Source: a virus. Taken from it: a stretch of 64,000 nucleotides of DNA. The position numbers and the translations under genes were made by a program. Below the pieces are notes generated by a model. That model worked only from the letters and a program-made list of their open reading frames with translations, was not told the origin of the DNA and did no database searches. Where the stretch lies: positions 113,645 to 177,644 of IMG/VR virus record IMGVR_UViG_3300023499_000220; one strand, written 5' to 3'. Numbering within the stretch: the first letter of the stretch is position 1; each line of letters opens with the position of its first letter. Below are positions 15,425-36,212 of the stretch, in pieces.

Positions 15425-15448
15425 TGCTTACTCCTTCCGCGACTGAGA

Positions 15449-17008: not shown

Positions 17009-17037
17009 ATTATACCACATAAATATAATGTGGTCAA
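17009..17037 (-). promoter_or_regulatory. Family-B promoter copy 1 (TTGACC-17-TGGTATAAT)
   Basis: Plus-strand text attataccacataaatataatgtggtcaa. Probable promoter of the operon running from 16961 down through secYGE and srtB. Confidence 0.55.
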
Positions 17038-17098
17038 TACAAATTGCGAATAAAAAAATGCCCCGCCGAAGCAGGGCATGTGAAATATCAGAAGTGCC

Positions 17099-17809
17099 TT
17101 ATCGAATGCCGTACCCCATATCTTGTCGTACGAGTTTTATTTCTGAAGTGTTTTTCAGACTATCGGGGAACATTTCTTTAGCGTAATCCTGATAGCGTTT
17201 CGTAACATACTTTACGCCGAGTTCTTCCGGTTTGATATCTGCTACAGTTTTTCTGATACGTTGATTCGATGCGCGAGAAGAACATTTCTTGCATAAGCAA
17301 AGCGCGACATTAGAAATGCCTTCATTCCCGCAGACGGCGCATTTTGCATGCGTCTTATCTCTGTCCCATTCCTTTATTTCTTTTCCGTTTTCCGGGTCTA
17401 TTACAAGGCGGTTGCGCTTACAGCGGCGCACATAGAACACGCTTTGGCAGCAGGCAACGCATAAGCCTAAATCTTTGCGGTAGTGAGAAGAGAGACCATC
17501 TGTGACTTCACCGCACAAAAGGCATTTATTTTGAGAAACAATATTCTTGTACTTATTAGCCTTGTTCTCTAATAGTTTTTTTATGATTTCGCCGGTCTTA
17601 TCGGGTTCAGGAGGATACGCATCCCATCCGTTTACAGGAAAAAAGCTGGAAAAGTCGTTCCATTCATCATCAGAAAACGAACAGCCGACAGGCTTGAGTA
17701 TCTTAGGAAGTTTATTGGACCATACTTTTTCTGCATTAGACTTCTTCGGCATACAGGCTCCTCCTTTGGAAGGAGTGACAGAATCAATATTCTGCCACGA
17801 TGTTATCAT
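17099..17809 (-). CDS. Cys-rich zinc-ribbon protein (236 aa; start possibly MPKKSN at about 17752)
   Basis: Multiple CxxC pairs: CLLCG, CVACC, CAVCG, CKKCS. Confidence 0.45.
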
Positions 17810-19208
17810 CGGGTTTTTTCTTTATTAAAGAGTCCCCGAATCGATTTACATGTTCTTTCGGCGGTTCAATGACCTCGATATCGGTATCCTCCACCTTTTC
17901 GATTTCGTCAGAGGAATCGTCATCTTTTTCGTTCTGAACCTTATCCGATGGATTGGTGATTTGTGCATCCTCTTTTGCAACATTTGAAAGCAAATCAAAT
18001 GTCAACTGAGAATTCGAGGACGCTGGTTTCTTTTCTCTTTTCTTGGTTGTTTGGCGTTTTTTGGAAGTTCTTTTTGACTTTACAGGTTCATTGGAACCAC
18101 CATCGTTTGTTTTTGCACTTGCTGTGTTTGAATCAACAACCGCATCCGCTGAAGCCTTATCCTTGTTTGTTTCTGTGACGGGTTCCTGAACCTTTTTGTT
18201 TTTTGATAAATCATCTTTGTCTGATTGTTTTGATTCCAAAGCAGAAGACTCTTGTGCGTTTGAGCCTTGCTCTTCTTGCACTACAGATTCTTCCTTTACT
18301 GGAACCTTGGCAGTTCCCTTCTGCAAAAGGCCATCGATTGCTACAACGGCCTCAGACTTCTTTTCTTCGGACTCCGCCTTTTGTACTGCACGGCGAATCG
18401 CCTCAGTTTTTTCTTTCTTTTCTTTTTCTGCTGATGCGGTATTTTCGCTTTCCTTTATCTCAGCAGGCACATTCATGGCAGATTTCGAATTCCACCACTT
18501 CTCAATAGTAGTAATCGTTCTTTCTACTAATATTATACCACAAAATTTGTGGTTTGACAACTTGCGGCTCGGCACAAAGCATACAATACCGCACAGAGAA
18601 ACAACCAGTAAAACAATAGCAAGTCCTGCATCAAAAATAAAACAGATAAACGACACCGGAATCAGCAGCTCGCAGATACCGCGCATGATAAATACTGTTT
18701 TATCTCCTTGGTCTTTTCGGTTTTGCATAAAACTGTCTCTCCCCTTCTGCGGGTGATAAGACAAACCACTTGACAAGCCGTTTGTTGCCCAATCACAAGG
18801 TATCTCGTAAGTCTTTTCTCCTAAGCTGTCTGTGTACTGAATTACAGCAATATCAAAATATTCACCATTCTTCTGTGATGCCAAGAATGCACGTAAGAAT
18901 TCATTTCCAACAGACCGCGCAGGAACAATAATCGTTTCGATGCCGTCAGAATCTTTTGCGGCGATATCTACTACATAGGTATCATCTTCACCGCGCCATA
19001 CGTTCTGCACAATACCGCGCACCAATATACCGCGCTTATGAACACGCCTTCCCATAAAAGTAAAGGAGTTTTCAGAATACCACGTGTTTACCATGCAATA
19101 CGCAGCAATAATAAGCAATGTAAGGTACTTAACATTTATGGTGATAATGCTTAAAGAAAAAATATACGGAACGAGCATCAGCAAGACGAATGATACAAAG
19201 CTATTCAC
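17784..19208 (-). CDS. membrane protein with disordered Lys/Glu/Ser-rich C-terminal region (474 aa)
   Basis: Two N-terminal TM segments and internal TM segments. Low-complexity tail. Confidence 0.45.
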
Positions 19209-19888
19209 TTTGAATCACCGCCTTCGCCAAATCCGTCCAAAAAGACAAGATTTTCTTTTGTGTGTTTCTTTTTTTGTTCAATAACTTCTTTTTCAGCTTC
19301 TTGTTTGACTTTATCGTACGCTTCCAACGGACTCATAGAAGGTACTGATTTCTGCGTATCAGCAGGGACGATAGTATCATCGTTTTTGACGGCTGTCGTT
19401 ACACGACTGCAGGTTACGAGATTTCTGTCATTAAACGCAGTTACGCCATCCTCATTTGATTTAAAAATAAAGTCATACATAGCACCAACGAAGAAAGAGT
19501 TTTTAACGTTTTTCTTTGATTCGTTGACGCTGAGGAAAAAATCGTATTTTCCGTTTTTGTCGATAAACTCTCCATCCTCATTGACAGGGATGATTCGATA
19601 GGTTGAAATCTGCTGGCGAATCATATTTTTGCTGGACTCATCGGATACAACAATTCCCTTAACAGTCTTATACCGTTCATTTTTTTCATCATTATGAATC
19701 TCATAAATTTGAAAAATAAAATAAGCGGCGCACATCAAGCCGATGAGAAGAATCTTCCACTCCTGCATTACAACAACACCGAAAATAGAAGCAATCAAGA
19801 ACAGAATAGCGATAAGCCCATTCTTCACATACATAGATGTGATAAGAGATTTGCAATCCGGATGATAAATCTTAGACATTTTATTCAC
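19205..19888 (-). CDS. membrane protein (227 aa)
   Basis: Two TM helices near the N-terminus. Confidence 0.4.
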
Positions 19889-20942
19889 CGCCTTCTACGT
19901 TAGAATCTTTATCTGCGCTGTTTGTCGTACTGGCAGACTGTAAAATGCTTGCACCCTGCTCATTCAGAACATCCTCGATTGTCTTGTCGCGTAGTTTAAT
20001 GCTGGACAAGACGACATCGTAAGACTCCCCAGACGAAGTAGTTACCCGTGCGATATATTGAATGGTCGTATCCCCCGCAAGCAATGCGCCATCTATTGTT
20101 TGCTTCTGACGATTTCCATCTTTATCTTCGGTCTCAACCACATACATATCCTGTGACGCTTTTTGTGCAGATACAGAAGACGTCATAACAATATCTCCGG
20201 CCTTCATATCAGAGGTCGCGAACTTGTTTACGATAGAACCTGTTCTATCCACAAAGAACACGGGAGTATCCTGCTGCATCTTCCCGTCGCCGTCTACGAA
20301 ATGCGAACCGCATAAGGATTCGTATTCGTTGACACTCAAAGTCTTATAGCTGAGTTCTGAATCCTCGATGGTATCCCCGGAAGGAATATCCACATTTACG
20401 ACAGCAACTTTATATTCTCCGGTAAGCTGTCCACTGATTTGGACCCAGTTTGTGTATACGAAGAAGCCAATAGCGATGGCGACAACGGCAACAATGAACA
20501 TTGCGATACCGATATTACGCTTGTTATTGTTTTTAATGATTTGTGCCTGTTCTAGGATTTCCTTACTGGCATGCTTAGTATCTTTAAGCGTCTGGTTTGC
20601 TTCATCCAGTGTATCGCTTGTCTTTGTAAGCACTTCGTAAGCTTTGGTCTCTCTATGGCCGACATTCACATTCAGCCCTTTTGCGCCATTGTTGTTGGCA
20701 GACTTTGCATTGTTATATTCGGCGCGAAGCGTTTCCACAACGGAATCGTCAAGCGTCATCTGTTCCCCGTTGGGCAGAATTACCGTACCATCATCATAGA
20801 CATCGAAAACACGTTCCTTGCCTTCATACATGGCGCGTACCTGACCGATAACGTAATGTTCGTTCATGTTTATCACACCCCTTATCTCTTGTACTTTTCG
20901 AACACCTTGCGCGAAGGAGCTCTCGGGCCGCACATCTTGCAC
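19881..20942 (-). CDS. single-pass membrane protein with possible SAF/CpaB-like domain (353 aa)
   Basis: The TM segment FIVAVVAIAIGFFVY is followed by YKVAVVNVDIPSGDTIEDSEL, which resembles CpaB/SAF. Weak. Confidence 0.35.
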   Translation of the reverse strand: MQDVRPESSFAQGVRKVQEIRGVINMNEHYVIGQVRAMYEGKERVFDVYDDGTVILPNGEQMTLDDSVVETLRAEYNNAKSANNNGAKGLNVNVGHRETKAYEVLTKTSDTLDEANQTLKDTKHASKEILEQAQIIKNNNKRNIGIAMFIVAVVAIAIGFFVYTNWVQISGQLTGEYKVAVVNVDIPSGDTIEDSELSYKTLSVNEYESLCGSHFVDGDGKMQQDTPVFFVDRTGSIVNKFATSDMKAGDIVMTSSVSAQKASQDMYVVETEDKDGNRQKQTIDGALLAGDTTIQYIARVTTSSGESYDVVLSSIKLRDKTIEDVLNEQGASILQSASTTNSADKDSNVEGGE

Positions 20943-21376
20943 TTTTTACTCTGCTCAACATAATCAATGAGCATCTGACGTTCCCATTCAAGGTATTCGT
21001 CCATATTTTTTTCTTTCCATGAATCGAATTTGCCGTATGAAACACCGAGATAACTGGCGAATATGCTGACAGCATTCAGCATATAATCATTCGGGATTAC
21101 AACCCTTTTCCCGTCCAGATTGTAAGCATGTCCCGTAGTGATTTTGTTTCTTGTCTGTCCTATCTTCATTCGCCTCGTTTCTGTGTTCTTCTTTACCTGA
21201 GTTTCTCTTCTTAGGGTACTGCAGGACTTGCAATATTGAGTATTTTTGGCGGTAGAATAAAAAATTCTGCCGCATTCCTTGCATTTGCGTTCGTACGTTA
21301 TGGTTTTAGGAGTTGTACTTTGTTTTTGGGTTTCTGTATGGTTGCTGTTTTCAGAAGTACAATGATTCCGAGCCAT
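20882..21376 (-). CDS. zinc-ribbon protein (164 aa)
   Basis: CKECG...CKSCS and CKMCG motifs. Confidence 0.4.
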   Translation of the reverse strand: MARNHCTSENSNHTETQKQSTTPKTITYERKCKECGRIFYSTAKNTQYCKSCSTLRRETQVKKNTETRRMKIGQTRNKITTGHAYNLDGKRVVIPNDYMLNAVSIFASYLGVSYGKFDSWKEKNMDEYLEWERQMLIDYVEQSKKCKMCGPRAPSRKVFEKYKR

Positions 21377-21392
21377 AATCTGTACCTCTTAT

Positions 21393-22454
21393 TTAAACGC
21401 GAGCGTCAATCAGGCAATTCAGCAGCCCGTTCGCGTCACAGCCAAACAATAAGCATCCGAACACACCAATGGCATGTCCTTTTCTGGTAGAGAATGTTCC
21501 TGCCGTAACACCAAGATGCCCGGCAATCTGCTCATCTGTCCAGTTGTACTTTTTCCCCTCAATCATTGCAAGGATAACGTCATAATAACGTTGACCAAGC
21601 GGAAACTGTTTCATGATTTCGACAGCCCCTCGTATGAGTTTCACATACTCCACAATGAGATAGGCATCGCTTCTGTTTTTATCAGAAACTTTGATTTTAC
21701 TCAAATCTTCGTACGAAGAAGACCCAAGCAGCTTCATGGCGGGGTCCTTTGACCGTGAGGCACGATACAGAATACGCGTGTATTCCGTAAGGAGCAGCGG
21801 AACATTATGATAAAGGCTTGCTTCTTCTACCCCGTCCACATCACTGCTTGTCATCAGGATTTTATAATATTCCTTGATAACACTACCTGCTGTATTGTAA
21901 ACGGATTCAATGCACCGCTCGCAATACTTCATGATTTTGATGCGTCCATTCTTCGGAAGAACGGCGGGATTCAAAAAGCAATCAAACACCTCCCGCATGC
22001 TGGAACAATAATCGACTTCGTACAAGAGTTCTAACCGCGACTCCTCAATGGCGTCAAGAAGCATCTGACAACTTTCGAAGTATTCTTTGCGTTTCCTGAA
22101 ATGCAAAGACTCTTCCTCAATGTTCGGAGCCAGCCAGCTCTGAATACGGCGCAAACGGGAAATGGCTTCGACATCGCACATCTCATCGTCGTGAACGTTT
22201 TCACAGTTCTGCATCATGACATCAAGGTCTTGTGCCTGCATCATCCATTTGAGTGCCGGATACAATATCATCAGAACAGCCGCTTCTTTCAGTTCCGGCC
22301 GCTCTTCCACAACACGGTTTACGCACTTTGTCAGCACATAAGAATTGGGGATGTCTCCGCCAAAACTTCTACGCAGAACAATGTTGTCCTGCATAATAGC
22401 ATCGAGCAATGCGTAAAGCTGCTGTTCTTGGGCTTTATTCAATGCTTCGGACAA
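21393..22454 (-). CDS. divergent sigma-factor-like protein (353 aa)
   Basis: The C-terminal LGQRYYDVILAMIEGKKYNWTDEQIAGHLGVTAGTFSTRKGHA fits the sigma-70 region 4 HTH pattern (RxVfxLrxxeGxsxxEIAxxLGxsxgTVKSRlhRA). Confidence 0.4.
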   Translation of the reverse strand: MSEALNKAQEQQLYALLDAIMQDNIVLRRSFGGDIPNSYVLTKCVNRVVEERPELKEAAVLMILYPALKWMMQAQDLDVMMQNCENVHDDEMCDVEAISRLRRIQSWLAPNIEEESLHFRKRKEYFESCQMLLDAIEESRLELLYEVDYCSSMREVFDCFLNPAVLPKNGRIKIMKYCERCIESVYNTAGSVIKEYYKILMTSSDVDGVEEASLYHNVPLLLTEYTRILYRASRSKDPAMKLLGSSSYEDLSKIKVSDKNRSDAYLIVEYVKLIRGAVEIMKQFPLGQRYYDVILAMIEGKKYNWTDEQIAGHLGVTAGTFSTRKGHAIGVFGCLLFGCDANGLLNCLIDARV

Positions 22455-22894
22455 TTTGCCTTCCCTCCTTTCGCAAGATTCGTTTCAATATGAATATGTG
22501 TGTTATCATGTACGGTTTCGGACAAAAGGCCACTATAATGGAACATGACCTTGTACTTCTTTGCGCTACAGGCATATTTGAGTCGTGCCCAAAGGTCTTT
22601 GTTATGACTGGGCTCAGTATCGCCGTCCTCTACGCCAAAAGAAGCTCCAGTACGCGCAATCGCATTATCGCTGCTGAATACGACAATCTGAGACCCTGTT
22701 GGCAAACCGATGTTCTCGATAATGCGGCAGAGCTCTGCCAATTTCAGCCTTGTATAACCAATTGGAGTAGCCATAAAATAAGTATCCTTCTGTCTATCCG
22801 ACTTGGCGGAAGGATTTACGACAAAACTGTGAACGCACACCTCCCCATTCAGTTCCGGCGTTTTGACGATATCAAGATAAATAATAGCGGCCAT
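22439..22894 (-). CDS. RNase H-like protein (151 aa)
   Basis: The ordered acidic residues (IYLDI, LAELC, VFSSDN, DLWARL...HYSGL) are compatible with RNase HI. Confidence 0.35.
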   Translation of the reverse strand: MAAIIYLDIVKTPELNGEVCVHSFVVNPSAKSDRQKDTYFMATPIGYTRLKLAELCRIIENIGLPTGSQIVVFSSDNAIARTGASFGVEDGDTEPSHNKDLWARLKYACSAKKYKVMFHYSGLLSETVHDNTHIHIETNLAKGGKANCPKH

Positions 22895-22920
22895 AAATCG
22901 CTCCCCCTAATGTACAGTAA

Positions 22921-22949
22921 TTGACTTTTTCGCGTTTTTGTGGTATTAT
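22921..22949 (+). promoter_or_regulatory. Family-B promoter copy on the plus strand (TTGACT-17-TGGTATTAT)
   Basis: ttgact-ttttcgcgtttttgtgg-tattat. Drives the plus-strand gene 23049..23711. Confidence 0.5.
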
Positions 22950-23048
22950 ATAAGTGCAGTAAAGGTATAATTTATATTACCGGTTACAAAGATTGTTGTT
23001 TTCGGTAATTATATAAACTTGTCTGTTAAACCAAGCAGGAGGGAAATT

Positions 23049-23711
23049 ATGAGTAACAATATCAACAACAACCACGAATCGGTAGAGAATATCTTCAATG
23101 CTTTCTTGATGGGAGGTAAAATGAACACTGCTTCCAAGCAAGAACGGGCAAAAATTGTAGATACCTTTATGGAACAGGCAAAATCTTGCTTTGTTGACAC
23201 GGAGAATACCGTGAAATATCTGAATGTTCTGATGGAACGGACGAGACTCCGTTATGGGTTTACCGCTGATGAATTTGCAGCAATGTTGGGATACAGCAGC
23301 ACTGCCGCTTACAACAAGACATTCATGCAACCAAATGCAAATTTTGGAACTGTAGTATTTCCTTATGTGGTTCAGTTTTGCTATCTGTTTGGCTATAATT
23401 TGTCAATTCCTGATTCCGTGTCTGCTCCGCAAACAGTGGCAGACCTATACTCTTTGGAACTGGCTTCTTTTCTGATTTCTCTTGGCCCCGATGCAATGGA
23501 TGATATTTCAAGAACATTGGTCGGTGCCGAATACCTTGACCCGAATTTAAGAAAAACAAGTTCTCAAATACTTTCAAAGGCAAAGAAATACTTCTATGGT
23601 AATGATGGTGAAGCGTTACCCAATGAAGTTCAGTACCGCAACAGATTAGATAACGCTGAGAATAAGATTAAGCGTCTCGATAAAATAGAGAAAGCCAATC
23701 ACGACAAATGA
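23049..23711 (+). CDS. hypothetical protein (about 221 aa from the ATG following AGGAGG)
   Basis: Strong ribosome-binding site aggaggg 7 nt before the ATG. One of only two plus-strand genes. Confidence 0.5.
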   Translation: MSNNINNNHESVENIFNAFLMGGKMNTASKQERAKIVDTFMEQAKSCFVDTENTVKYLNVLMERTRLRYGFTADEFAAMLGYSSTAAYNKTFMQPNANFGTVVFPYVVQFCYLFGYNLSIPDSVSAPQTVADLYSLELASFLISLGPDAMDDISRTLVGAEYLDPNLRKTSSQILSKAKKYFYGNDGEALPNEVQYRNRLDNAENKIKRLDKIEKANHDK

Positions 23712-24176
23712 TTAGCCGCCAAACATATCGGCTAACTGTAATGCAAGCATCGCTTCTTCTGAAATAGGAGGCGGTGCTTCTTCTGTTTTGGGAGTTGTGT
23801 TGATGGTTTGTGTGTCTGTAATGTTTTGGGGGGAGTAATTTGAAGCTGGCGCAGCTACCGCAATCCCGTTTTTCTGAATGCTGCTTGTCACTGCATCTAC
23901 AATCTGAGGAATACAGCTTCTGATTTCTTCTGCTATTGTGTTTTGCAGTTCCTCTTTTAAGATGGACTGCGCTTCTTGCATCTCATGTTGTTTTGTAGCC
24001 TTGTCGATTATAGCATTCACAACCGCATCGGTTTTTCCGCCGCGTTGCAAACTGTTCAGATAATCATATACAAGTACATGATTGTCTTTGCTTAAATCAA
24101 AAACAAGTGTGGTTCGTACCGTCGTGCCAACGGTCTCTTTTTCTGTTTCATTCTTTTTGGGACGTCCACGCGGCAT
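23712..24176 (-). CDS. parR: ParR-like centromere-binding adaptor (154 aa)
   Basis: Immediately downstream of parM. N-terminal AT-hook-like GRPKK and a ribbon-helix-helix-like segment TLVFDLSKDNHVLVYDYLNSL. Confidence 0.45.
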   Translation of the reverse strand: MPRGRPKKNETEKETVGTTVRTTLVFDLSKDNHVLVYDYLNSLQRGGKTDAVVNAIIDKATKQHEMQEAQSILKEELQNTIAEEIRSCIPQIVDAVTSSIQKNGIAVAAPASNYSPQNITDTQTINTTPKTEEAPPPISEEAMLALQLADMFGG

Positions 24177-24209
24177 TCAGTGCTCACCACGCTTTCGAAA
24201 ACGGTGCTC

Positions 24210-25169
24210 TTAAATTTCACCGCTCATGGTCAGCTTTGCACGAGCCATGATTTCATATCCTTTTGCATTTGCGGTTACATCCGTCAAGAAGAAAAGGTTC
24301 TTGGTGTCAATGGCTCGCTCGATGCTTTCGCGCATCATAGCAGAACCACCACCCATAAAGATGAAATAGGATGTTTTGAAATCGTCCTTGATTTTTTCGG
24401 AAATCGTACGAATCAATGCTGTTGCATAATTGTCTGCGGTTTCCTTGGCAATTTTCACGGCGTTTTCATCGACCAGCATGTTGTTGTTCCCTGCAAGGAT
24501 TGCCTCAGCCATGTAGTCATCGACCGACAAGGAACAATGGACACGCAGCTCGCTCTCGACAGTGCTCAGGAGTTCAATGACTCCACGGTCATAGCTTTCG
24601 CAGAAAGAAAGGTCCGGAGCATAAGTGTTGCTGCGACCAGAGAAACGAATCACATCCGTGGTATACCCGCCGATGTCTACAACATAAGAACGGGGATAGC
24701 GCTTGATTTCCTTCTGAATCTCGCCTGCTGCCGTAATAGAAAAGCCCTGAGGATAGACAAAGACGTGCTTGACAGTAATCTCGAACGGGATATCTTTGTA
24801 CATGAAATTGATGAGTTTCCCGTTTTTGCCGAAATACTCATCATACTTCGCTTTCAGGGACATATGCTGCGGGGGCAAGCCCATCGCGAGGCATACATCG
24901 TATTTGTAGAATTTCTGATTGGGATACTTCTTTATAAGGTTCTTTGCTACGGCAATCAGCGTCAGCAAAAAGTAAGTATCATCCTTCGTCTTATCCTGCT
25001 GATAAGGCGTGCGGCTGTCATTGAGAGAATAATACTTCCCCATATAGCACATCGTCTCTCCCTTGATAGCCGGTTCAGTCGTACCGTGACGAACAAGACC
25101 AGTGGGAAACGGCTCACAGCCAGGCGTCTTCATTGCCTTGTTTCCGGTATCTACTCCAATAATCTCCAT
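24210..25169 (-). CDS. parM: ParM/StbA-type actin-like segregation ATPase (320 aa from MEIIGVD; ORF open to 25346)
   Basis: Phosphate-1 motif IGVDTGNKAMK and phosphate-2 motif VVDIGGYTTDV. GGAGG ribosome-binding site 7 nt upstream of the ATG at 25169. Confidence 0.8.
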   Translation of the reverse strand: MEIIGVDTGNKAMKTPGCEPFPTGLVRHGTTEPAIKGETMCYMGKYYSLNDSRTPYQQDKTKDDTYFLLTLIAVAKNLIKKYPNQKFYKYDVCLAMGLPPQHMSLKAKYDEYFGKNGKLINFMYKDIPFEITVKHVFVYPQGFSITAAGEIQKEIKRYPRSYVVDIGGYTTDVIRFSGRSNTYAPDLSFCESYDRGVIELLSTVESELRVHCSLSVDDYMAEAILAGNNNMLVDENAVKIAKETADNYATALIRTISEKIKDDFKTSYFIFMGGGSAMMRESIERAIDTKNLFFLTDVTANAKGYEIMARAKLTMSGEI

Positions 25170-28646: not shown

Positions 28647-28670
28647 GTTATCAACTCCTTCACCGGCAGT

Positions 28671-28952: not shown

Positions 28953-29036
28953 GATTTAACCCTCACTCTAAATACGGCAAAAAGGCCATGCGCTCTATTT
29001 CCTATAAGAAATGGCGGTATGGCCTGTTTGCCTCGC

Positions 29037-29555
29037 TTAAATAATCGAGAACTTACGCTTTTTGTTTGTGAACTCAACAATCATAGAAGGACGACGACTG
29101 CCGATAGTCTCTTTCCGATTCTCAGAGTCAATGAACAGATAAGGGTTCGTCATCTTGATTCTGGCAGGCAGAAACTTTACCCTTACTCCCTGCTGTCCAT
29201 AAATGTATCTCTGGAACCAGTCAGAGTCCGTAGAAACGGGTAAAAGCATGACGACCGTGGTATTCTTTTTCCTTGACTCCTCGTACGCCTTGCGCACCCA
29301 CAACTTAAAGGACTTATGCCCTGTCGGGGGATTGCAAAATACTGTTTCACCTTTCCAGTCCTGCAAGAGGCCATCGACACGCTCCGTGTAATATTTCTTG
29401 CATTTATGATTTTTGTCCGATGCAGCCGCATCCAGAGTGAAACCGTATTCCTTGTTCAGGTCATCGAAAAGCCCCTGAGGCGTCTCCCATTCCTGTTTGT
29501 GAGTATTCTTGACTGCATAAGTCTTATCCGTTGTTTTCGTTTCTACGCTGTTCAT
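29037..29555 (-). CDS. dam: phage-type DNA N6-adenine methyltransferase (Dam family, 172 aa)
   Basis: EWETPQGLFDDLNKEYGFTLDAAAS and the catalytic-loop variant NPPTG match the small phage Dam family (PF05869-like). Confidence 0.65.
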   Translation of the reverse strand: MNSVETKTTDKTYAVKNTHKQEWETPQGLFDDLNKEYGFTLDAAASDKNHKCKKYYTERVDGLLQDWKGETVFCNPPTGHKSFKLWVRKAYEESRKKNTTVVMLLPVSTDSDWFQRYIYGQQGVRVKFLPARIKMTNPYLFIDSENRKETIGSRRPSMIVEFTNKKRKFSII

Positions 29556-29584
29556 GGCAATCTTCCCCTTACGATTGATGATGT

Positions 29585-30223
29585 TTATTTCGTGGTCTTT
29601 GGGCCTTTTAAAAGCCCCTTGGTTCTGAGAATGTTCCGCACATATGCAAGGCGTCTTCTGCCAAAGCCATGTGCATTCTGCTTACTTTTGTTTTCGGCAT
29701 AAGCCATATCAGAATACTTGATGCCGTCTTTGTAATGCTTCAAGAGATAATCTGTAACAGTCGTATCTCTGATTGCAAGAATAGCATCGACAATTCTCGC
29801 TTCTTCTTTTTTCGAATAAGGATAATCGTCGATGTTATACCTGACCCCGTCCAGCCCGCAAATGATATTCACGGGCCAACCCTTACGGAAGGCAATGTTT
29901 GCTTCGCGGATATTCCGTTCTGTCATGACATCGCCGGTCTTATCTCTTCTGTGCCTATACAATGTTCGCTGCGCACAGGCTTTGCATATACCCCGCGCAT
30001 ATATGATAGAAAGCCTATTACAAATAGGGCATTCTTCGATTCGGACATGCTTTCCAGACTTAACGGTTTGATAATCCAACCCGTTGATGTAAGTCTTATT
30101 GTTAAAGGTGATTGTTTCCGCACCCTTGTATTCAGGAAACTCATCTCCCGTATAAGTTCCCTTCATCTCTGCGGGAAGGGTATCTGCGTCGCTTTGAAGT
30201 ACGTAGAATTTCTTTTTGCTCAT
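29585..30223 (-). CDS. zinc-ribbon hypothetical protein (212 aa)
   Basis: CPICN...CKACAQ motif. Confidence 0.35.
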   Translation of the reverse strand: MSKKKFYVLQSDADTLPAEMKGTYTGDEFPEYKGAETITFNNKTYINGLDYQTVKSGKHVRIEECPICNRLSIIYARGICKACAQRTLYRHRRDKTGDVMTERNIREANIAFRKGWPVNIICGLDGVRYNIDDYPYSKKEEARIVDAILAIRDTTVTDYLLKHYKDGIKYSDMAYAENKSKQNAHGFGRRRLAYVRNILRTKGLLKGPKTTK

Positions 30224-30242
30224 AGTCTACCACCGTTTCTGC

Positions 30243-30962
30243 TTATCCTGCGATGCTGCTTTCAGCAACCTCGAATGGCTTTACATCAACAAGCCTTACA
30301 GAAACAATGGTAGCAAGCAGGTCTTTGGTGCTATTGAAGATGATGTTCTTCTTCTCGCCAAAGGTATCATAGAACTGAGCAGAGCAGCGATTCGGATTGT
30401 CATCGGTATCCAGCATTTTGAATCCACTCTCTCCTCTGCACAGCATCGTGGTAATATAACTACCCATGTTGCAGAAGAAATCGGTTGTAGTAAACCGGAA
30501 TACCGGAGGCGTTTTCTTACGGATGGTGATGTACCGCTCGTAAAGTTCTCCGTTGATTTCCGTAACCATCAGAAGTTCAAAGGTACAGATGAACTGCCCT
30601 GCTGTCGGTGACGGAATTCCGTGCGTAGGAGTTCTCTTGTGCTGCGCCGCACTCTCCGCCTCGTACATGATTCCGTACTGTGTGACGTTGACGGTGCCGA
30701 GATTGTCAATCTTCTTGACAGTCTGATGTTTGACGAGATAGCCGTCGTACATAAGACGGTCAATAATTCTCTCGCCCTTGGCTTTCAAATTGTCGCCCTC
30801 AATCGTTGAAACGACTTCGTCAGAACCCTCGTACTGATAGCCAACGACACGACCAAAACATGCAGGCGCATCGTTTTCACTTTCTACTTTCAGGGACATA
30901 ACTGACCCGAAAGGGCAATACTCCGGAATTCTTTTCTTTGCTACATAACGTTTTTCTACCAT
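30243..30962 (-). CDS. hypothetical protein (239 aa)
   Basis: Intact ORF downstream of family-B promoter copy 2. Confidence 0.4.
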   Translation of the reverse strand: MVEKRYVAKKRIPEYCPFGSVMSLKVESENDAPACFGRVVGYQYEGSDEVVSTIEGDNLKAKGERIIDRLMYDGYLVKHQTVKKIDNLGTVNVTQYGIMYEAESAAQHKRTPTHGIPSPTAGQFICTFELLMVTEINGELYERYITIRKKTPPVFRFTTTDFFCNMGSYITTMLCRGESGFKMLDTDDNPNRCSAQFYDTFGEKKNIIFNSTKDLLATIVSVRLVDVKPFEVAESSIAG

Positions 30963-31126
30963 TGAATCTGTCCCCCGTGTTTGCTTGTTGATTCGTATGA
31001 TATTGCCTATTTATTCTAATATAGTCAACATCAAAAAACTGCGTAAAAAATCGCACAGATGTTCTTCTGCGCTGTTCCACCATAGAAATATCACCGATAT
31101 TCCCTGTTCATCTTGAACATATCTAT

Positions 31127-31155
31127 ATTATACCACATTAAAACAAGGTAGTCAA
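31127..31155 (-). promoter_or_regulatory. Family-B promoter copy 2 (TTGACT-17-TGGTATAAT)
   Basis: Plus-strand text attataccacattaaaacaaggtagtcaa. Confidence 0.55.
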
Positions 31156-31223
31156 CGACAAAAACCGTCGCAAATGTTAGTTTTCGCATTTACGACGGCT
31201 GAAGTTATATTTTTTTGAGCAAA

Positions 31224-32759
31224 TTATTTTATATCGCTTGCGTTTTCGTCAGGTTCGATGTGTGCATTGTCATCAGCCTTCTCGATTACAGGCAAACCGT
31301 GAATGTTGATATTGCGGTCAGTCTTAGCATTGATACTGTTCGCACGAACGATATCGGCCATATCGATACCGGTAGCTTCCTTGACGGTCTGCATGGTCTG
31401 TGCCATCAGCACGGGAACATTCCCAGACACGCCGGAAACGCCAGATGCATCGCCGCCAATGATAGACACCTTATCGATTGCGGACAAGGGCTGAGCCACA
31501 TTCTTAGCAATATCAGGCAGGACCTTGATAAGCATTTCAGCGACAGCAGCATCGTTGTACTGCTTGTAAGCTTCCGCCTTTTGCTTCATAGCTTCGGCTT
31601 CAGCAATACCCTTCTGACGGATAGCCTCAGCTTCTGCCTTACCTACAAGGGCAATACCTTCGGCTTCCTGCTGCTTTGCAAATTTCTGAGCCTCAGCAGC
31701 GCGTTCGGCTTCGTATTTTTTTGCTTCTGCTTCTTTTTGGCGTTTATACAATTCGGCATCCGCAGCTTTGCGAACCTCTGCATCCAGTTTTCTCTGCTGA
31801 ACCTCGGCTTCCTGTGCAGCAAGGTCGACCATCTTCTTCTGCTTTGCGATTTCCGCATCAGCTTCGGCTTCCTTGATTTCCTTGGCGCGAAGATTTGTCT
31901 GAATCTGTCCTGCAGCGTTGGCATCAGCAGCAGCCTTGTCAGCCTCGGCTTTCAATTTGGCCTTTGCCAGCTGCAATTCATTGTTGCGCTGTGCAATAGC
32001 AGTCTGGGCTTCAACTTCCTTTTCATTGGCTGCCATTTCAGCGTCAGCCTTTGCGCGAGCAATATCACGAGCGGCTTCGGCACGAGCAATCTCTGCACGT
32101 TTCTTGACGGCTTCTTCCTGCTCAATACCAATAGCCTCAATGACGCCGTGATTGTGACCCTGCGCATCAACGGCGTCTTTTACATCCTGCACATTGAATG
32201 TTACAACTTCGAGGCCCATCTTTGCAAGGTCAGGACGGGCATTTTCGATTACTGACAGCGCCATTTGTTTACGATTTGTGAGAATCTGGTCAACCGTCAT
32301 ATCCGAAACGATTTCGCGCAGGTTGCCTTGCAAGACATCATTTACTTTATCATTGATGCCTTTTTCGTCCATGCCAAGGAAGTTCGAAATAGCCGACTGC
32401 TGACGACCCGTAATATATTCCTTGACATCCTTTGCACCAGATGCCTGAACCTCAGAGTCGAGAACAGTAGAATTATCGCTGTATACCTGAATCGTTACAA
32501 CAGAATCAATCCAGAGCGATACGCCTTCTTTTGTCTTGACACCCGTCTCAGGGGTTTTGACATCAATTTTCAGAAGACGCATATTCAGCTTATCTGCACG
32601 CTGCAGCACAGGGATGACAAATGTACCCTTTCCACAAACGACCTTGGGCTTTTTCAAGCCGAATCCAGTCACAACGATGGCTGCTGTGGGAGGCGCTTTT
32701 TTGTAGCATGTGAATGCGAACAAAACAAACAATACGACAATGATGATTCCTAAAAACAT
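31224..32759 (-). CDS. flotillin / SPFH (band-7) domain protein (511 aa)
   Basis: N-terminal TM segment, SPFH domain, and a long Ala/Glu/Lys-rich coiled-coil (EA-repeat) region typical of FloT/YqiK flotillins. Confidence 0.85.
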   Translation of the reverse strand: MFLGIIIVVLFVLFAFTCYKKAPPTAAIVVTGFGLKKPKVVCGKGTFVIPVLQRADKLNMRLLKIDVKTPETGVKTKEGVSLWIDSVVTIQVYSDNSTVLDSEVQASGAKDVKEYITGRQQSAISNFLGMDEKGINDKVNDVLQGNLREIVSDMTVDQILTNRKQMALSVIENARPDLAKMGLEVVTFNVQDVKDAVDAQGHNHGVIEAIGIEQEEAVKKRAEIARAEAARDIARAKADAEMAANEKEVEAQTAIAQRNNELQLAKAKLKAEADKAAADANAAGQIQTNLRAKEIKEAEADAEIAKQKKMVDLAAQEAEVQQRKLDAEVRKAADAELYKRQKEAEAKKYEAERAAEAQKFAKQQEAEGIALVGKAEAEAIRQKGIAEAEAMKQKAEAYKQYNDAAVAEMLIKVLPDIAKNVAQPLSAIDKVSIIGGDASGVSGVSGNVPVLMAQTMQTVKEATGIDMADIVRANSINAKTDRNINIHGLPVIEKADDNAHIEPDENASDIK

Positions 32760-32774
32760 GGTATACTCCTTTTC

Positions 32775-33005
32775 TTATCTGCAATGGGATTTGCAATACT
32801 TTGACACTTTGCTGGCGACCTCTTTCTTGAATGCATATTCATCACATTGTGCCAAACGCATTTTATATATCTCCTGCTGTTTGGCAACACGAGCCGAATA
32901 GCCTTCGCATACGGAATGACATCCAGCTTTGCGATGTGGGCATTGATAACAGGTTCTAAAAATGTCGTGTTCGCTCGCACTTCCAGTATTGCTGTTCGAT
33001 GTCAT
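32775..33005 (-). CDS. Cys-rich small protein (76 aa)
   Basis: CYQCPHRKAGCHSVCEG plus a C-terminal CKSHC motif. Downstream of family-B promoter copy 3. Confidence 0.35.
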   Translation of the reverse strand: MTSNSNTGSASEHDIFRTCYQCPHRKAGCHSVCEGYSARVAKQQEIYKMRLAQCDEYAFKKEVASKVSKYCKSHCR

Positions 33006-33043
33006 AAATGGAATTCCCCCTGTCTTTCCAATTGATATATTAT

Positions 33044-33072
33044 ATTATACCACAAATAGGCGAATGAATCAA
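33044..33072 (-). promoter_or_regulatory. Family-B promoter copy 3 (TTGATT-17-TGGTATAAT)
   Basis: Plus-strand text attataccacaaataggcgaatgaatcaa. Confidence 0.45.
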
Positions 33073-33124
33073 TGAAAAAAGACGAGCAAGATATTTCTCA
33101 CTCGCCTTCTGCTCTTTTGTGTTG

Positions 33125-34213
33125 TTAGGCTTCTTCGCTGCCTTCGCTATCTTCTTCTTTGCGACTATCCTTAGAGAACCCAACAAAACCGCATGCGCCT
33201 GCAGAAATTCCAAAGATTACTGCCATGATGGGCATGATGAGTCTGTTTCGATATACAGCACCTACAATGAAATTAGCGTTAGCTACCTGCTCCAATACAT
33301 AGTGTGCAATCGCGCAAATTGTAAGTTCAGAAGCGTTACCGAACGATTCATCAAGACCGATGCTGAGCAGCGACATGGAATAGGTTGCACTGGCTACATA
33401 CTTGATTTCGATAGGTGCAGCGGTTTCATATACAGCTACATAACTCTTGCCGGTATTCTTTTGACCGTAGATAGACAGTGTGCGGTAGAATCCGCCTTCT
33501 GCCCTTGCTACTGGGTCGCTTGTCCACTTACCGCCTGTGATTTTATAGGAATCACTGTTCAGACCGATGGCAGACATCAAATCGCTCTTATAACCATCCC
33601 AAAGCGGTGTGGCGGGATTGTATGTGTGGACTTTTCCGAGATAGACATATGCGGTGGCACCTTCCGGAATTACGACTTGTCCATCAATCGTGAAATCGAC
33701 CCATGTATCGGTGTCCTCGACTTCATTGACCTCTTTCAGAACGCCTTCAACTTCCGTACCATCATCAAGAGTGAAGGTCTTGTTTTGCGGGGCGTTCGGT
33801 TTCTTGTCTTCGCCCTTGTACTCCACTGTCATTTCTGTGGGAATATCGGCTTGTTCTTCCGTGTACTGAACATCTTCGAGCGGCAATTCATACTGTTCTC
33901 CGCCCAGCGTTACAGTATAGGTCTGAGGAACTTCTTTTACAGTCAAATCCGTATATTCTACGGTTTCTTGATACTTGGTATTGAGTTCCCTTTGCTGATA
34001 ATCTACGCTGTCTTCGTCGAGGACATAGGTATTACCGTTCTCCTCAATCTCCTTCGGAAGAGGATTGGCATCAGCTTCTTCTTGGTCCTTGTAATTGAAC
34101 TCACGAGTGATATCAATATCAATATCACCAAGAGAAGTCAACGCTTGTGTAGAAATGCATCCTACGCAAAGCAGCGCACTTACAAAAGCAAGCACTCTCA
34201 TTATATTCTTCAT
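33125..34213 (-). CDS. secreted, C-terminally membrane-anchored surface protein (about 362 aa from MKNIMRV; ORF open to 34330)
   Basis: Signal peptide MKNIMRVLAFVSALLCVGC. Acidic beta-rich body. C-terminal TM segment plus charged tail. Downstream of family-A promoter copy 6. Confidence 0.5.
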   Translation of the reverse strand: MKNIMRVLAFVSALLCVGCISTQALTSLGDIDIDITREFNYKDQEEADANPLPKEIEENGNTYVLDEDSVDYQQRELNTKYQETVEYTDLTVKEVPQTYTVTLGGEQYELPLEDVQYTEEQADIPTEMTVEYKGEDKKPNAPQNKTFTLDDGTEVEGVLKEVNEVEDTDTWVDFTIDGQVVIPEGATAYVYLGKVHTYNPATPLWDGYKSDLMSAIGLNSDSYKITGGKWTSDPVARAEGGFYRTLSIYGQKNTGKSYVAVYETAAPIEIKYVASATYSMSLLSIGLDESFGNASELTICAIAHYVLEQVANANFIVGAVYRNRLIMPIMAVIFGISAGACGFVGFSKDSRKEEDSEGSEEA

Positions 34214-34277
34214 AGCTTTTTTTGGCGTCTTAGCAGCTTGTCTGCCTGTACGCCGCCTCCTTTCGAATTCTCCTTTT

Positions 34278-34305
34278 ATTGTATCTACTTTGCAGCAAAT
34301 AGCAA
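34278..34305 (-). promoter_or_regulatory. Family-A promoter copy 6 (TTGCTA-16-TACAAT)
   Basis: Plus-strand text attgta-tctactttgcagcaaa-tagcaa. Confidence 0.5.
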
Positions 34306-34352
34306 AGAAAAAAGCCGAGCGGCTTATCACCGCTCGGCATCCCCATCACATA

Positions 34353-34913
34353 TCAATCTTCATCGACGTCTTCGTTGACAGTCGTGTTTACTCGTTCCTC
34401 TTTCGGAATGTACTTAGGTGTGGGCTCACAACGACATTTGAGTACATATTCACTATCGCCAAACGCAAGTTCCTTTAATGCTAACGGGTAGGCAAAAAAC
34501 AGCTTCTTGGCAAATGCTTCATCCTTATCAAACGCTTTTGCCAGTTTCTTGTAGAAGAACCAGCAATAAGCAGACAATGCAAGAGTGTAAGCAATGGAAT
34601 CGAACTGGAACATTGTAAATCCAGTTCCCAACTCGACATGGTTCATAAAATACCACACCCAAAGCCAAGACGGAACACACTGAATGATAGAGCCTACACC
34701 GTATACCAGCGGATACACGCCATAGGTACCATAGGCGAAAATAAGCGGAGAAGCTCCCTTCTTATATGCCTTATAGGACATTTTCATAACACAAACAAAA
34801 ATAAAAAGAAGTGTTACGGTAGTCAGCAGATTAGCAATGAAGTGTAAGAAGCCAAGCCCCTTCGTACAAAGATGTAAAGTCAATCCTAAATAAAGAATAA
34901 TCGGCATTTTCAT
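34353..34913 (-). CDS. polytopic membrane protein (186 aa)
   Basis: Five or six hydrophobic helices. Downstream of family-B promoter copy 4. Confidence 0.45.
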   Translation of the reverse strand: MKMPIILYLGLTLHLCTKGLGFLHFIANLLTTVTLLFIFVCVMKMSYKAYKKGASPLIFAYGTYGVYPLVYGVGSIIQCVPSWLWVWYFMNHVELGTGFTMFQFDSIAYTLALSAYCWFFYKKLAKAFDKDEAFAKKLFFAYPLALKELAFGDSEYVLKCRCEPTPKYIPKEERVNTTVNEDVDED

Positions 34914-34929
34914 TCCTCCTCTTTTCTAT

Positions 34930-34958
34930 ATTATACCACATTTTGCCTTAATGGTCAA
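34930..34958 (-). promoter_or_regulatory. Family-B promoter copy 4 (TTGACC-17-TGGTATAAT)
   Basis: Plus-strand text attataccacattttgccttaatggtcaa. Confidence 0.55.
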
Positions 34959-35155
34959 CTTGTATAATACAAAAAAGATAGCCACCCATTTCTGAGCGGC
35001 TATCTGAAGATTTGAGGTCCACATTCAGCGCCTAAACCCTGTTCTGCTTCCCTGATGACTGGTTTTATCGTTGCTCGCCAACCGCAGGTCTATACATCCT
35101 GCATCGCACTTTGAGAAAATAATCGAGTTTATGTGCCAGCCTCACAAGGCGTCTT

Positions 35156-35860
35156 TTAGCCTACTGCAGTTTCGTCAGCAGGGGCCTCGGACTCAGCAGC
35201 AGAATCAGCCTCGGCAGTATCCTCAGAGGAAGCCTCCTCAGTGGATTCGGCGGCATCGCCATCAGTCTCGGCGCTTTCAGCCTCGCTGTCGGAAGCCTCA
35301 CTGTCAGCAGCTTCAGATTCAGCAGTGCTCTCAGCCTCGGATGCAGCCGCTTCCTCAGCAGGCACGGAGGTAGCCACCAGCAGATTGCCCTCGGCATCAG
35401 CCTGACCACAGTTGTACAGATATGCGAACGCAGCACTCAGATTGTCGAACTTGGACAGGTCAGGAACCTCAACAGTAGAACCGTCATCAGCGGTCTTGGT
35501 ACCGTCGAAATGAACGCTGCCATCCTCGTCATAGCGAACGGTGACGGTATAGCCATCGCTTGCCAGAGCTTCAGTCATATAAGCGGCATAAGCGTTCATG
35601 GTGGTCTTCATCTGGTCCTCACTCAGAGAAACACCATCGGGCATCTCAGTCAGCTTGCTGTTGTCCAGAACCTCAACTGCGGACTCACTGGTCGCGCCGC
35701 TTGCACTGGCAGCATCATCCTTCTTGCCACAACCAACAAATGCAGTGCAGGCCATTGCCATAGCGAGACACAGCGCAGCACCCTTCTTTACAGAACTCTT
35801 GTTAACCTTCTGCATGAGTAACTTCTCCTTTTTCATGTGTGTTTGATGTGCATATTTCAA
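35156..35860 (-). CDS. acidic lipoprotein (234 aa; lipobox FVGC)
   Basis: Signal peptide with lipobox AFVGC. Asp/Glu/Ala/Ser-rich C-terminus. Preceded by a ~330-nt leader containing tandem palindromic repeats. Confidence 0.5.
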   Translation of the reverse strand: MKYAHQTHMKKEKLLMQKVNKSSVKKGAALCLAMAMACTAFVGCGKKDDAASASGATSESAVEVLDNSKLTEMPDGVSLSEDQMKTTMNAYAAYMTEALASDGYTVTVRYDEDGSVHFDGTKTADDGSTVEVPDLSKFDNLSAAFAYLYNCGQADAEGNLLVATSVPAEEAAASEAESTAESEAADSEASDSEAESAETDGDAAESTEEASSEDTAEADSAAESEAPADETAVG

Positions 35861-36040
35861 TCTAACGCAACCCGTGCAGGTTGCAACTGAAAGCAGCGCA
35901 CGATGCTAGTCTATTTCAATCTAACGCAACCCATGCGGGTTGCAACAGCAAACTTACACATTTTCATGTGTGTTTGTTCGATGTGCATATTTCAATCTAA
36001 CGCAACCCGTGCGGGTTGCAACAGCAAACTTGCACAAACG
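35830..36040. repeat. three tandem ~60-75-bp repeats, each with the core ATTTCAATCTAACGCAACCCGTGCGGGTTGCAAC (an 18-bp palindrome)
   Basis: Cores at 35854..35887, 35913..35946 and 35989..36022. The flanking ttttcatgtgtgtttg(ttc)gatgtgcat and agcaaactt(a/g)caca segments are also repeated. Confidence 0.8.
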
Positions 36041-36176
36041 GAGCAATAAGTTGTCATGCATTTTGTACAGTGTTTGTCTGTTTTTTGACCATACAATATG
36101 GTCAGATGCTACTTACTGCAATGGAATCATATCCTTTCATCATATTGTTTGAACAAGCTTCATGCACTATGCTTAT

Positions 36177-36205
36177 ATTATACCACTAAAAGTATAAATA
36201 GTCAA
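36177..36205 (-). promoter_or_regulatory. Family-B promoter copy 5 (TTGACT-17-TGGTATAAT)
   Basis: Plus-strand text attataccactaaaagtataaatagtcaa. The transcript would traverse the tandem palindromic repeats before reaching the lipoprotein gene. Confidence 0.5.
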
Positions 36206-36212
36206 CAAAGAA

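Follow-up and report, generated by a model that had tools for sequence, protein, structure and literature searches.

Extended -10 promoters of the sigma-A type are well described in Gram-positive bacteria. The element, TRTGnTATAAT, also called the "-16 region", was defined in Bacillus subtilis and is frequent in Streptococcus pneumoniae (Voskuil & Chambliss, as cited in PMC5036317 and PMC6570832). The closest described replicons are the recently reported G2 "Hodor" conjugative megaplasmids of the gut (bioRxiv 2026; PMC12934698), which measure 211–389 kb with a GC content of about 44.6% and encode a giant protein of 7309–7704 aa whose neighbours include one of about 2642 aa. The G2 marker is a class B sortase beside hyp-SecY-SecG-SecE-trigger factor; Rep_3, ParA/ParB, type IV secretion and type I-C cas genes, together with at least 90% nucleotide identity to a curated Hodor genome, complete the definition (PMC12934698). 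Paired metatranscriptomes are available (SRR7880364, PRJNA492158), and promoters were not discussed in that paper (PMC12934698). In the early promoter clusters of phages, which are read by the host polymerase, near-consensus extended -10 promoters are likewise repeated within one mobile element. The korA/korB regulon of IncP plasmid RK2 is a global operator-bearing promoter set of a broad-host-range plasmid.

The stretch of DNA analysed here (64 kb, hereafter the window) matches a G2 Hodor megaplasmid. It encodes SecY (Pfam, 1.6e-86), SecE (4.4e-08), an FKBP/trigger-factor-like lipoprotein and a weak SecG match (0.0024, below the cut-off), as well as a class B sortase (TIGR03064, E 6e-22, below the equivalog cut-off). 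Gene calls of 7321–7324 aa and 2647–2653 aa were found on contigs of 272–350 kb, and related contigs reach 389 kb. The GC content was 46.6% over the whole window and 44.4% over positions 1–36300. A ParM/Alp-like gene and I-C-like repeats were also present; the remaining defining genes (Rep_3, ParA/ParB, type IV secretion, cas) fall beyond the window.

The window was searched for TTGACY-N14-TGGTATWAT with at most one mismatch, and exactly six sites were returned (Table 1, promoters 1–6; hereafter B sites), against 0.02 expected by shuffling; six were reached in none of 100 shuffles. These are the same six copies that the preliminary description had listed. Their 17-nt spacer is exact throughout, and also at 18532, and the spacer ends in TGG in every copy, with a wider TGTGG at five sites and AGTGG (TG only) at 36177. 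The -10 hexamer is TATAAT in five copies and TATTAT at 22921, as described before, and is directly followed by ATA(R) in all six. The -35 hexamer, given earlier as TTGAC(C/T) for all copies, has this form at five sites (TTGACC or TTGACT, 5/6 bases in agreement with TTGACA), and 33044 carries TTGATT (4/6). When the whole window was scanned, the B sites were the best-scoring sigma-70-type matches in 64 kb, and TG or TRTG upstream of the -10 was essentially confined to them among such matches.

Each of the six sites lies between genes and reads in the same direction as the gene that follows; even the lone plus-strand copy (22921) stands before the one plus-strand gene of the area. Downstream are Shine-Dalgarno sequences and start codons, giving predicted 5′ UTRs of about 16–160 nt, or about 330 nt in the promoter-6 unit, where a CRISPR insert is present. 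Five of the six sites lie 0–15 nt downstream of an intrinsic terminator, so each of these would start an insulated, mostly short unit.

Table 1. Putative promoters, terminators and predicted transcription units in the window.
Feature	Position	Strand	Description
B promoter 1	17009..17037	-	TTGACC-17-TGTGGTATAAT; predicted start ~17002; orthologue in SecY-90% clade (L062 5066)
Terminator	17052..17079	-	directly upstream of promoter 1; -16.0 kcal/mol, T7 tail
Promoter-1 unit	13566..16961	-	16446-16961 (171 aa), 15724-16401 (225 aa, Zn-ribbon), 15449-15724 (91 aa), secY 14084-15424, secG-like 13814-14068, secE 13566-13817
Strong terminator	13521..13559	-	right after secE; -23.5 kcal/mol; 13-bp stem, 8 GC pairs
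B promoter 2	22921..22949	+	TTGACT-17-TGTGGTATTAT; predicted start ~22956
Promoter-2 gene	23049-23711	+	220 aa, soluble, no assigned function
B promoter 3	31127..31155	-	TTGACT-17-TGTGGTATAAT; predicted start ~31120
Terminator hairpin	31159..31199	-	follows flotillin gene, 3 nt before promoter 3; -17.9 kcal/mol, T5 tail
Promoter-3 leader	30963..31122	-	structured RNA, z = -3.5; terminator-like hairpin 31072-31043
Promoter-3 unit		-	160-nt leader, then 30243-30962 (239 aa), 29585-30223 (212 aa), Dam 29037-29555
B promoter 4	33044..33072	-	TTGATT-17-TGTGGTATAAT; predicted start ~33037
Terminator-like hairpin	33075..33106	-	upstream of promoter 4; -14.8 kcal/mol, T6 tail
Promoter-4 unit		-	76-aa Cys-rich ORF 32775-33005, flotillin 31224-32759
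B promoter 5	34930..34958	-	TTGACC-17-TGTGGTATAAT; predicted start ~34923
Terminator	34970..35005	-	upstream of promoter 5, also ends lipoprotein unit; -20.5 kcal/mol
Promoter-5 unit		-	single gene, 186-aa membrane protein 34353-34913; ends at terminator 34338-34307
B promoter 6	36177..36205	-	TTGACT-17-AGTGGTATAAT; predicted start ~36170
Terminator	36206..36245	-	after 2651-aa gene, abuts promoter 6; -25.4 kcal/mol
5′ UTR insert (~297 nt)	35854..36151	-	CRISPR leader 36023-36137; repeats 35989-36022, 35913-35946, 35854-35887
Promoter-6 unit		-	CRISPR mini-array insert, lipoprotein gene 35156-35836
Candidate seventh B promoter	18532..18560	-	TTGTCA-17-TGTGGTATAAT-ATT, within ORF 17784-19208
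Degenerate eighth, B-like	44385..44413	-	TTGACT-N14-TGG-CATATT; ~145 nt upstream of 2651-aa gene

The first unit had been described as an operon running into secYGE, a lipoprotein and srtB. The secYGE part was retained; the lipoprotein and srtB are separated from it by the strong predicted terminator after secE. The predicted end of the unit agrees with the Hodor23 metatranscriptome, where SecY-SecG-SecE are grouped apart from the trigger factor and SrtB (PMC12934698). Gene 30243–30962, earlier placed downstream of a B copy, is the first after the promoter-3 leader, for which an Rfam search gave no match. The small Cys-rich protein was found behind promoter 4 as reported, now with flotillin added to its unit. 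Membrane and surface genes, the proposed common theme, account for four of the six units, but not for those at 22921 (a soluble protein) and 31127 (soluble proteins including the Dam methylase). According to the Hodor paper, the giant gene is co-transcribed with the three neighbours downstream of it (PMC12934698). This sits uneasily with a separate terminator-promoter junction at each of 44.6, 36.2 and 35.0 kb, unless there is read-through at the terminators or the coverage merely runs on without a break.

Among close relatives, positions polymorphic in at least two loci numbered 0/84 in the hexamers, 5/84 in the spacers and 15/420 upstream, a contrast that few variable sites underlie. At promoters 4 and 6 the relatives vary in the spacer, with both hexamers fixed. 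In a clade whose SecY is 90% identical, the sec-unit and plus-strand promoters are kept in diverged flanks, together with the terminator-promoter pairing and the unusual TATTAT -10; the latter belongs to the orthologue of promoter 2 (L062 3794), which lies on the strand opposite SecY. Across the plasmid family, 21 sites were collected (about 20 independent); position -18 is T in 20 of them, and -17 is R in all 21. These two positions had been left free by the search, and they produce exactly TRTGn, the published Gram-positive extended -10 (PMC5036317, PMC6570832). The enrichment, the intergenic and co-oriented placement, the terminators before five sites, the ribosome-binding sites and starts downstream, and the retention of two sites in the diverged clade all support the earlier view of these sites as probable promoters.

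Based on the above results, we suggest that the six B sites are most probably ordinary promoters read by the housekeeping RNA polymerase of the host (sigma-A holoenzyme). They correspond position by position to the Gram-positive "-16 region" promoters in the -35, the 17-bp spacer, TRTG, the -10 and the placement before genes. They depart from the textbook consensus in three respects: the -35 hexamer closes with T or C rather than A, position -14 is always G, and the -10 is followed by ATA. Their starts are predicted ones. In the proposed mechanism, sigma region 4 would contact the -35, region 3.0/2.5 would bind the TRTG "-16 region" and stabilize the open complex, and region 2 would melt the -10, with transcription expected to start about 7 nt downstream of it. 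Such promoters may be strong and constitutively active. Given the match to the general Bacillota consensus and the lack of a shared operator, they should fire without a plasmid-encoded factor, a property that would suit a conjugative megaplasmid moving among Bacillota hosts.

The distribution of the pattern is consistent with this assignment. TTGAC-N15-TGGTATAATATA, a shared pattern that includes the trailing ATA, was found in at least 119 stretches, mostly unrelated viral contigs with a GC content of 21–56%. Thus, the motif is generic and extends well beyond the element and its relatives. Among the 129 unique generic matches listed, 86 have TTGACA and 65% have TRTG; the sixth -35 base is A in these 86, versus only 2 of the 21 family sites, where T or C is used instead. 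One IMG/VR contig (L114) contains seven copies within about 2.6 kb and resembles the phage early clusters. The B sites differ from such clusters in being spread over about 20 kb of plasmid, in being mostly insulated by terminators, and in driving membrane, secretion and CRISPR-array units rather than an early-gene block.

The additional likeness among the B sites may have come from common descent, that is, from a terminator-promoter cassette copied or recombined around the plasmid, whose copies would still function as sigma-A promoters. Over 37 positions that take in the spacer, only 6 distinguish promoter 17009 from 31127, and in the SecY-90% clade L062 611 and 5066 have almost all of the spacer in common, as well as the AGGTGTAT that follows. 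A lineage-specific pyrimidine at the sixth -35 base would also be easier to explain by descent. However, most spacers are unrelated, the similarity ends at the core with no extended flanking homology seen, and the upstream terminators differ in sequence. We regard a copied cassette as a rather unlikely source of the shared bases.

Still less probable is that the B sites form a co-regulated class under a plasmid-encoded sigma factor, activator or repressor, separated from a family A in time or condition. The preliminary description had proposed two sharply conserved promoter classes. The A family does exist: seven copies of TTGCAA-aTGCTGCAAAGT-nnn-TAnAAT share a conserved spacer (TGCTGCAAAGT), leader and terminator, and they cluster at 0.5–11.4 kb, while the B promoters lie at 17–36 kb. 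The bases shared beyond the consensus (a pyrimidine ending the -35, the G at -14 and the trailing ATA) would also suit a B-specific regulator, and an inverted repeat, ACCAC...GTGGT, occupies the spacer in 4 of the 21 family sites (equalled in 0 of 20000 spacer shuffles). This repeat could be an operator, but its gap varies (0, 1, 2, 4 or 7 nt), which is a misfit for a dimeric operator. Moreover, the spacer and flank columns of the 21 family sites showed no consensus outside the RNA polymerase contact positions, which leaves a dedicated "B regulon" unsupported, and the same pattern recurs often in viral contigs that are mostly unrelated. The two families also lack cleanly separate territories, since one A-type promoter lies amid the B units (34278–34305) and a B-like site stands behind an A-type promoter at 44.4 kb. 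Searches of the window proteins (64 kb of a replicon of about 330 kb) with Pfam, PHROGs and NCBIfam detected no sigma or regulator domain. A 353-aa protein with a C-terminus that looked sigma-like by eye gained no support as a candidate (AF2 pLDDT 56; no significant Foldseek match and none to PDB sigma/regulator profiles). B is better described as the generic sigma-A consensus than as a distinctive class, and no sign of the proposed regulon was seen in the window. The likeness to RK2, in which plasmid promoters are of recurrent, recognizable types, fits the A family, whose spacer is conserved; the B sites, having no shared operator-like sequence, do not fit it.

It is scarcely credible that the sites are chance AT-rich intergenic matches or a dispersed mobile repeat lacking promoter function: beyond the general caveat that a consensus match is not proof of function, this reading is opposed by the excess over the shuffled expectation, the correct orientation of every copy, the terminator pairing, the orthologues conserved across clades and the absence of any repeat past the core of about 37 nt.

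With the B sites taken as sigma-A promoters, Table 1 provides the first promoter-and-terminator map of the Hodor surface/secretion module and predicts where transcripts should start and stop. It refines the published operons by separating secYGE from trigger factor/srtB and by assigning each giant-gene neighbour its own terminator-promoter junction. For work on gut Bacillota, the sites could also provide a set of off-the-shelf strong promoters. The value of the result is modest; since the promoter type is a textbook one, the view of transcription mechanisms is unchanged.

The "repeat-laden leader" noted earlier before the lipoprotein gene does contain repeats, which were identified here as a CRISPR leader followed by three type I-C-like repeats. 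The insert is missing in most relatives and represents an insertion/deletion polymorphism. The repeat, GTTGCAACCCGCAyGGGTTGCGTTAGATTGAAAT, has the features of type I-C (32–34 nt, a GC-rich hairpin and a 3′ GATTGAAAT/C tail); the I-C repeat of Bifidobacterium longum, GTCGCACCCCTCACGGGGTGCGTGGATTGAAAT, is given for comparison (PMC5626976). The spacers in the window are 42 and 25 nt, unlike the regular 33–37-nt spacers of the related loci L020–L026, and the 42-nt spacer is a copy of the lipoprotein gene's own 5′ UTR and the end of the leader. Hodor-family mini-arrays have between one and five type I-C-like repeats and lie downstream of strong promoters, and some of their spacers resemble sequences of related elements. 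Short arrays on mobile elements, including solitary repeats and RNA anti-CRISPRs, are known (PMC10651486); the Hodor case differs in that these plasmids have type I-C cas genes of their own (PMC12934698) and in the irregular spacers of the window array.

A two-tier programme in Hodor may also be imagined, though we consider it doubtful: the B promoters would be a factor-independent tier and the A promoters a plasmid-controlled one, with the ACCACA/TGTGGT subset of B tuned by a plasmid factor. If so, the B promoters would have been selected for immediate expression of secretion and surface genes in any Bacillota recipient, and the type I-C mini-CRISPR arrays dispersed on the plasmid would likewise be expressed at once and would act against rival Hodor variants.

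Two further sites resemble the B promoters. The copy at 18532 contains the palindrome ACCACAAA/TTTGTGGT and is probably another sigma-A promoter; it is invariant across nine relatives, but the site is coding sequence. The degenerate copy at 44385, with an A-type promoter upstream of it, is possibly another, and its homologue in L026 precedes, and presumably drives, a five-repeat CRISPR array.

A search of the window for TTGACY-N14-TGGTATWAT, allowing at most one mismatch, returned exactly the six B sites, the candidate promoters at 17009(-), 22921(+), 31127(-), 33044(-), 34930(-) and 36177(-) listed in the preliminary description, against 0.02 matches expected from dinucleotide-preserving shuffles. 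All six have the 17-nt spacer, and in each the core is directly followed by ATA(A/G) on its 3′ side. The TTGACy form of the -35 element holds for five of them, while 33044 reads TTGATT; AGTGG is found at 36177 in place of the TGTGG of the other five. In a whole-window scan of sigma-70-type sites, the B copies scored highest, and a TG or TRTG extension was practically confined to them.

The window and all fetched related loci were searched for TTGNNN-N14-TGGTATWAT, which gave about 20 independent sites. At positions left free by the search, -18 was T in 20/21 sites and -17 was a purine in 21/21, so the core can be written TRTGnTATAAT, corresponding to the extended -10 ("-16 region") described for Bacillus subtilis and also common in Streptococcus pneumoniae and other Gram-positives (PMC5036317; PMC6570832). 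Judged by sequence, the combination of TTGACy, 17 bp and TRTGnTATAAT is the textbook sigma-A promoter pattern. The spacer and flank columns (n = 21) gave no further consensus. The sixth -35 base is preferentially T or C in this plasmid family, with A in only 2/21 sites, which is the one local peculiarity of its B sites. It was also observed that the spacers of some B promoters (4/21 sites) contain ACCACA/TGTGGT inverted repeats with gaps of 0–7 nt, a count reached by 0/20000 spacer shuffles. The 2651-aa gene has a similar repeat in its 5′ UTR, which forms the hairpin CTGTGGT-AAA-ACCACAG.

The placement of the sites was also analyzed. All six are intergenic and aimed at the next gene, the only plus-strand copy preceding the only plus-strand gene of the region. 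A Shine–Dalgarno sequence and a start codon follow each site, and five have an intrinsic terminator (-14.8 to -25.4 kcal/mol) 0–15 nt upstream. The reading of the B sites as promoters is very likely right. The membrane and surface theme proposed for the downstream genes applies to four of the six predicted units and fails for the other two, and the supposed operon running into secYGE-lipoprotein-srtB is broken by a terminator after secE.

Coordinates of the features discussed (window positions unless a locus fetched from a related metagenome or viral contig, L0xx, is named)
Feature	Position	Strand	Remarks
Seventh B copy, TTGTCA-17-TGTGGTATAAT	18532-18560		within ORF 17784-19208
Degenerate eighth B copy, TTGACT-N14-TGG-CATATT	44385-44413		in front of the 2651-aa gene
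Terminators just upstream of B sites	17079-17052; 31199-31159; 33106-33075; 35005-34970; 36245-36206		
Predicted unit	from 17037	-	171-aa, 225-aa zinc-ribbon, 91-aa, SecY, SecG-like, SecE; ends at strong terminator 13559-13521
Predicted unit	from 22921	+	soluble 220-aa protein
Predicted unit	from 31155	-	160-nt structured leader, then 239-aa, 212-aa and Dam methylase genes
Predicted unit	from 33072	-	76-aa Cys-rich ORF (32775-33005), flotillin
Predicted unit	from 34958	-	186-aa membrane protein; ends at terminator 34338-34307
Predicted unit	from 36205	-	CRISPR mini-array, lipoprotein
A-family sites	527-554; 4733-4760; 7480-7507; 9767-9794; 11325-11352; 34278-34305; 44558-44585	-	
ACCACA/TGTGGT-type repeats	17014-17034; 18537-18553; 44271-44287; L020 8526(-); L023 8519(-); L031 5473		
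Mini-array insert	~35854-36151	-	~297 nt, downstream of B site 36177
Dispersed mini-arrays	L020 2732-3040; L021 9489-9795; L023 7070-7376; L022; L024 12780-12860; L025; L026 7434-7960		
Long antisense ORF	36246-42887	+	2213 aa; antisense to giant surface-protein genes
Long antisense ORF	47731-56934	+	3067 aa; as above
Long antisense ORF	56956-59676	+	906 aa; as above
Long antisense ORF	60973-63363	+	796 aa; as above

Most neighbouring genes received no functional assignment in searches with PHROGs, Pfam and NCBIfam. The leader at 30963-31122 (-) is unusually structured (z = -3.5), with a terminator-like hairpin at 31072-31043 ahead of the 239-aa gene, and may be a short RNA or act as an attenuator. 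Rfam at E ≤ 1 gave no match in this leader or in the CRISPR array leader, nor did Rfam at gathering score anywhere in the window, and a tRNA search of the whole window found none. At 22921(+), the AT-rich -10 region overlaps a weak opposite-strand promoter of the gene 22439-22894 (segment 22895-23018), and the plus-strand 5′ UTR contains the inverted repeat TTACCG-N20-CGGTAA (22977-23008); the arrangement at 22895-23018 resembles a small genetic switch.

By its sequence, the B motif is not specific to this element. Scanning IMG/VR for TTGAC-N15-TGGTATAATATA yielded at least 119 stretches, mostly from unrelated samples and with a GC content of 21–56%, including one contig with seven copies inside about 2.6 kb. 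In the 129 unique matches listed, the preferred bases at the free positions are again A for the sixth -35 base (86), T for -18 (104) and a purine for -17 (106), so that these matches have the look of real promoters of this generic type.

Exact-protein look-ups located this region on numerous metagenome contigs (270–350 kb). Among close relatives, none of 84 hexamer positions was polymorphic in at least two loci, compared with 5/84 spacer and 15/420 upstream positions; at 33044 and 36177 several spacer variants occur with fixed hexamers. Because the numbers are small, this contrast only suggests constraint on the B sites. A stronger conservation test is offered by a clade with 90% SecY identity and 48% GC (L062-L065), probably Hodor group G1. 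There, a terminator plus TTGACT-17-TGTGGTATAAT is retained in front of the sec unit while the flanks have diverged, and the opposite-strand promoter is kept with its unusual TATTAT -10. Flotillin-based loci (90% and 76% identity clades) were non-syntenic, had no B sites there and gave no orthologous promoters; such promoters came only from the SecY-90% clade.

Two promoter classes with distinct regulons had been proposed. Both are real as sequence families, but only the second, the A family, looks like a regulatory class. Its seven sites share TTGCAA-a-TGCTGCAAAGT-nnn-TAnAAT (also written TTGCAA-aTGCTGCAAAGT-nnn-TAnAAT) with a 16-nt spacer and without TG. In six of the seven, the promoter is followed by a leader ending in an intrinsic terminator hairpin ahead of the gene, and five of these six leaders contain the conserved sequence AAGATAAATMAAA. 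The whole looks like an attenuator or small-RNA module. Unlike B, the A family shows conservation outside the polymerase contacts, which makes it the better candidate for control specific to the plasmid. A special B regulon found no support, given the absence of such conservation and the generic occurrence of the motif in IMG/VR. Family searches with PHROGs, Pfam and NCBIfam detected neither sigma nor regulator domains in the neighbouring proteins. The 353-aa protein (21393-22454), considered as a plasmid-encoded sigma factor on account of a C-terminus resembling sigma region 4 by eye, is otherwise unsupported in that role: its homologues form only four clusters besides its own, all of unannotated metagenome proteins, its AF2 model is poor (pLDDT 56), Foldseek against PDB gave no significant match, and a PDB profile search gave nothing significant and no sigma factor or regulator. 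The B sites belong to an ordinary promoter type, carried on an interesting plasmid that was described recently.

"Hodor" conjugative megaplasmids, which come from the human gut, are 211–389 kb in size, with 44.6% GC in group G2 (PMC12934698), and the window matches them. The window carries the Hodor genes quoted there and has 44–47% GC; Inocle identity was ruled out by GC content (24–32% vs. about 45%). For 11400-36300, megablast found nothing matching among phage and plasmid records; GTDB scans yielded 0 matches with the CRISPR repeat and no relative with SecY. The closest SecY proteins in PLSDB, from Subdoligranulum (45%) and Vescimonas (42%), only hint at a gut Clostridia host. Promoters are not mentioned in PMC12934698, where the metatranscriptome groups SecY-SecG-SecE apart from trigger factor and SrtB, which fits the terminator after secE. 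The same paper treats the giant gene together with its three downstream neighbours as a single operon, based on RNA coverage. However, at each of these junctions a strong terminator hairpin precedes a promoter (44615-44654, 36206-36245, 34970-35005), an arrangement that seems at odds with a single operon.

The "repeat-laden leader" of the lipoprotein gene turned out to be a CRISPR leader and three type I-C-like repeats inserted in the 5′ UTR. The repeat, GTTGCAACCCGCAyGGGTTGCGTTAGATTGAAAT, resembles published type I-C repeats, and the leader shares homology with the one preceding a true five-repeat array on the related contig L026. The insert is present in the window and L007 (8750-9060), is missing in L001-L006 and L008-L010, and is an insertion/deletion polymorphism among near-identical plasmids. 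Its "spacers" are irregular (42 nt and 25 nt). The first copies the 5′ UTR of the gene itself and the leader end, with one mismatch to the native UTR of variants lacking the array; in the window, the UTR's own copy has a small deletion. Other family loci have mini-arrays of 1–5 repeats with 33–37-nt spacers, in most cases with a B-type or B-like promoter about 200 nt upstream, and some of these spacers resemble sequences in related elements. One is similar to the 3′ end of a nearby tRNA gene (3–4 mismatches), and another to the terminator hairpin located after the leaders of A-type promoters (3 mismatches). In the Hodor paper, the only mention is of a "degraded repeat array" (PMC12934698).

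The long ORFs opposite the two giant surface-protein genes probably arise as a by-product, the coding sequence there being repetitive and biased in composition. Paralogous small membrane-protein genes with about 50% identity (55/110 residues) lie side by side at 10495-10827 and 10868-11197 (-). The close relative L008 (10584-19400) is without about 10 kb between the 186-aa and 154-aa genes and carries an IS605-type OrfB/TnpB insertion, and in the more distant L033 a HEARO RNA and an HDV-like ribozyme lie close to the flotillin gene (5680-5940, 10370-10439).
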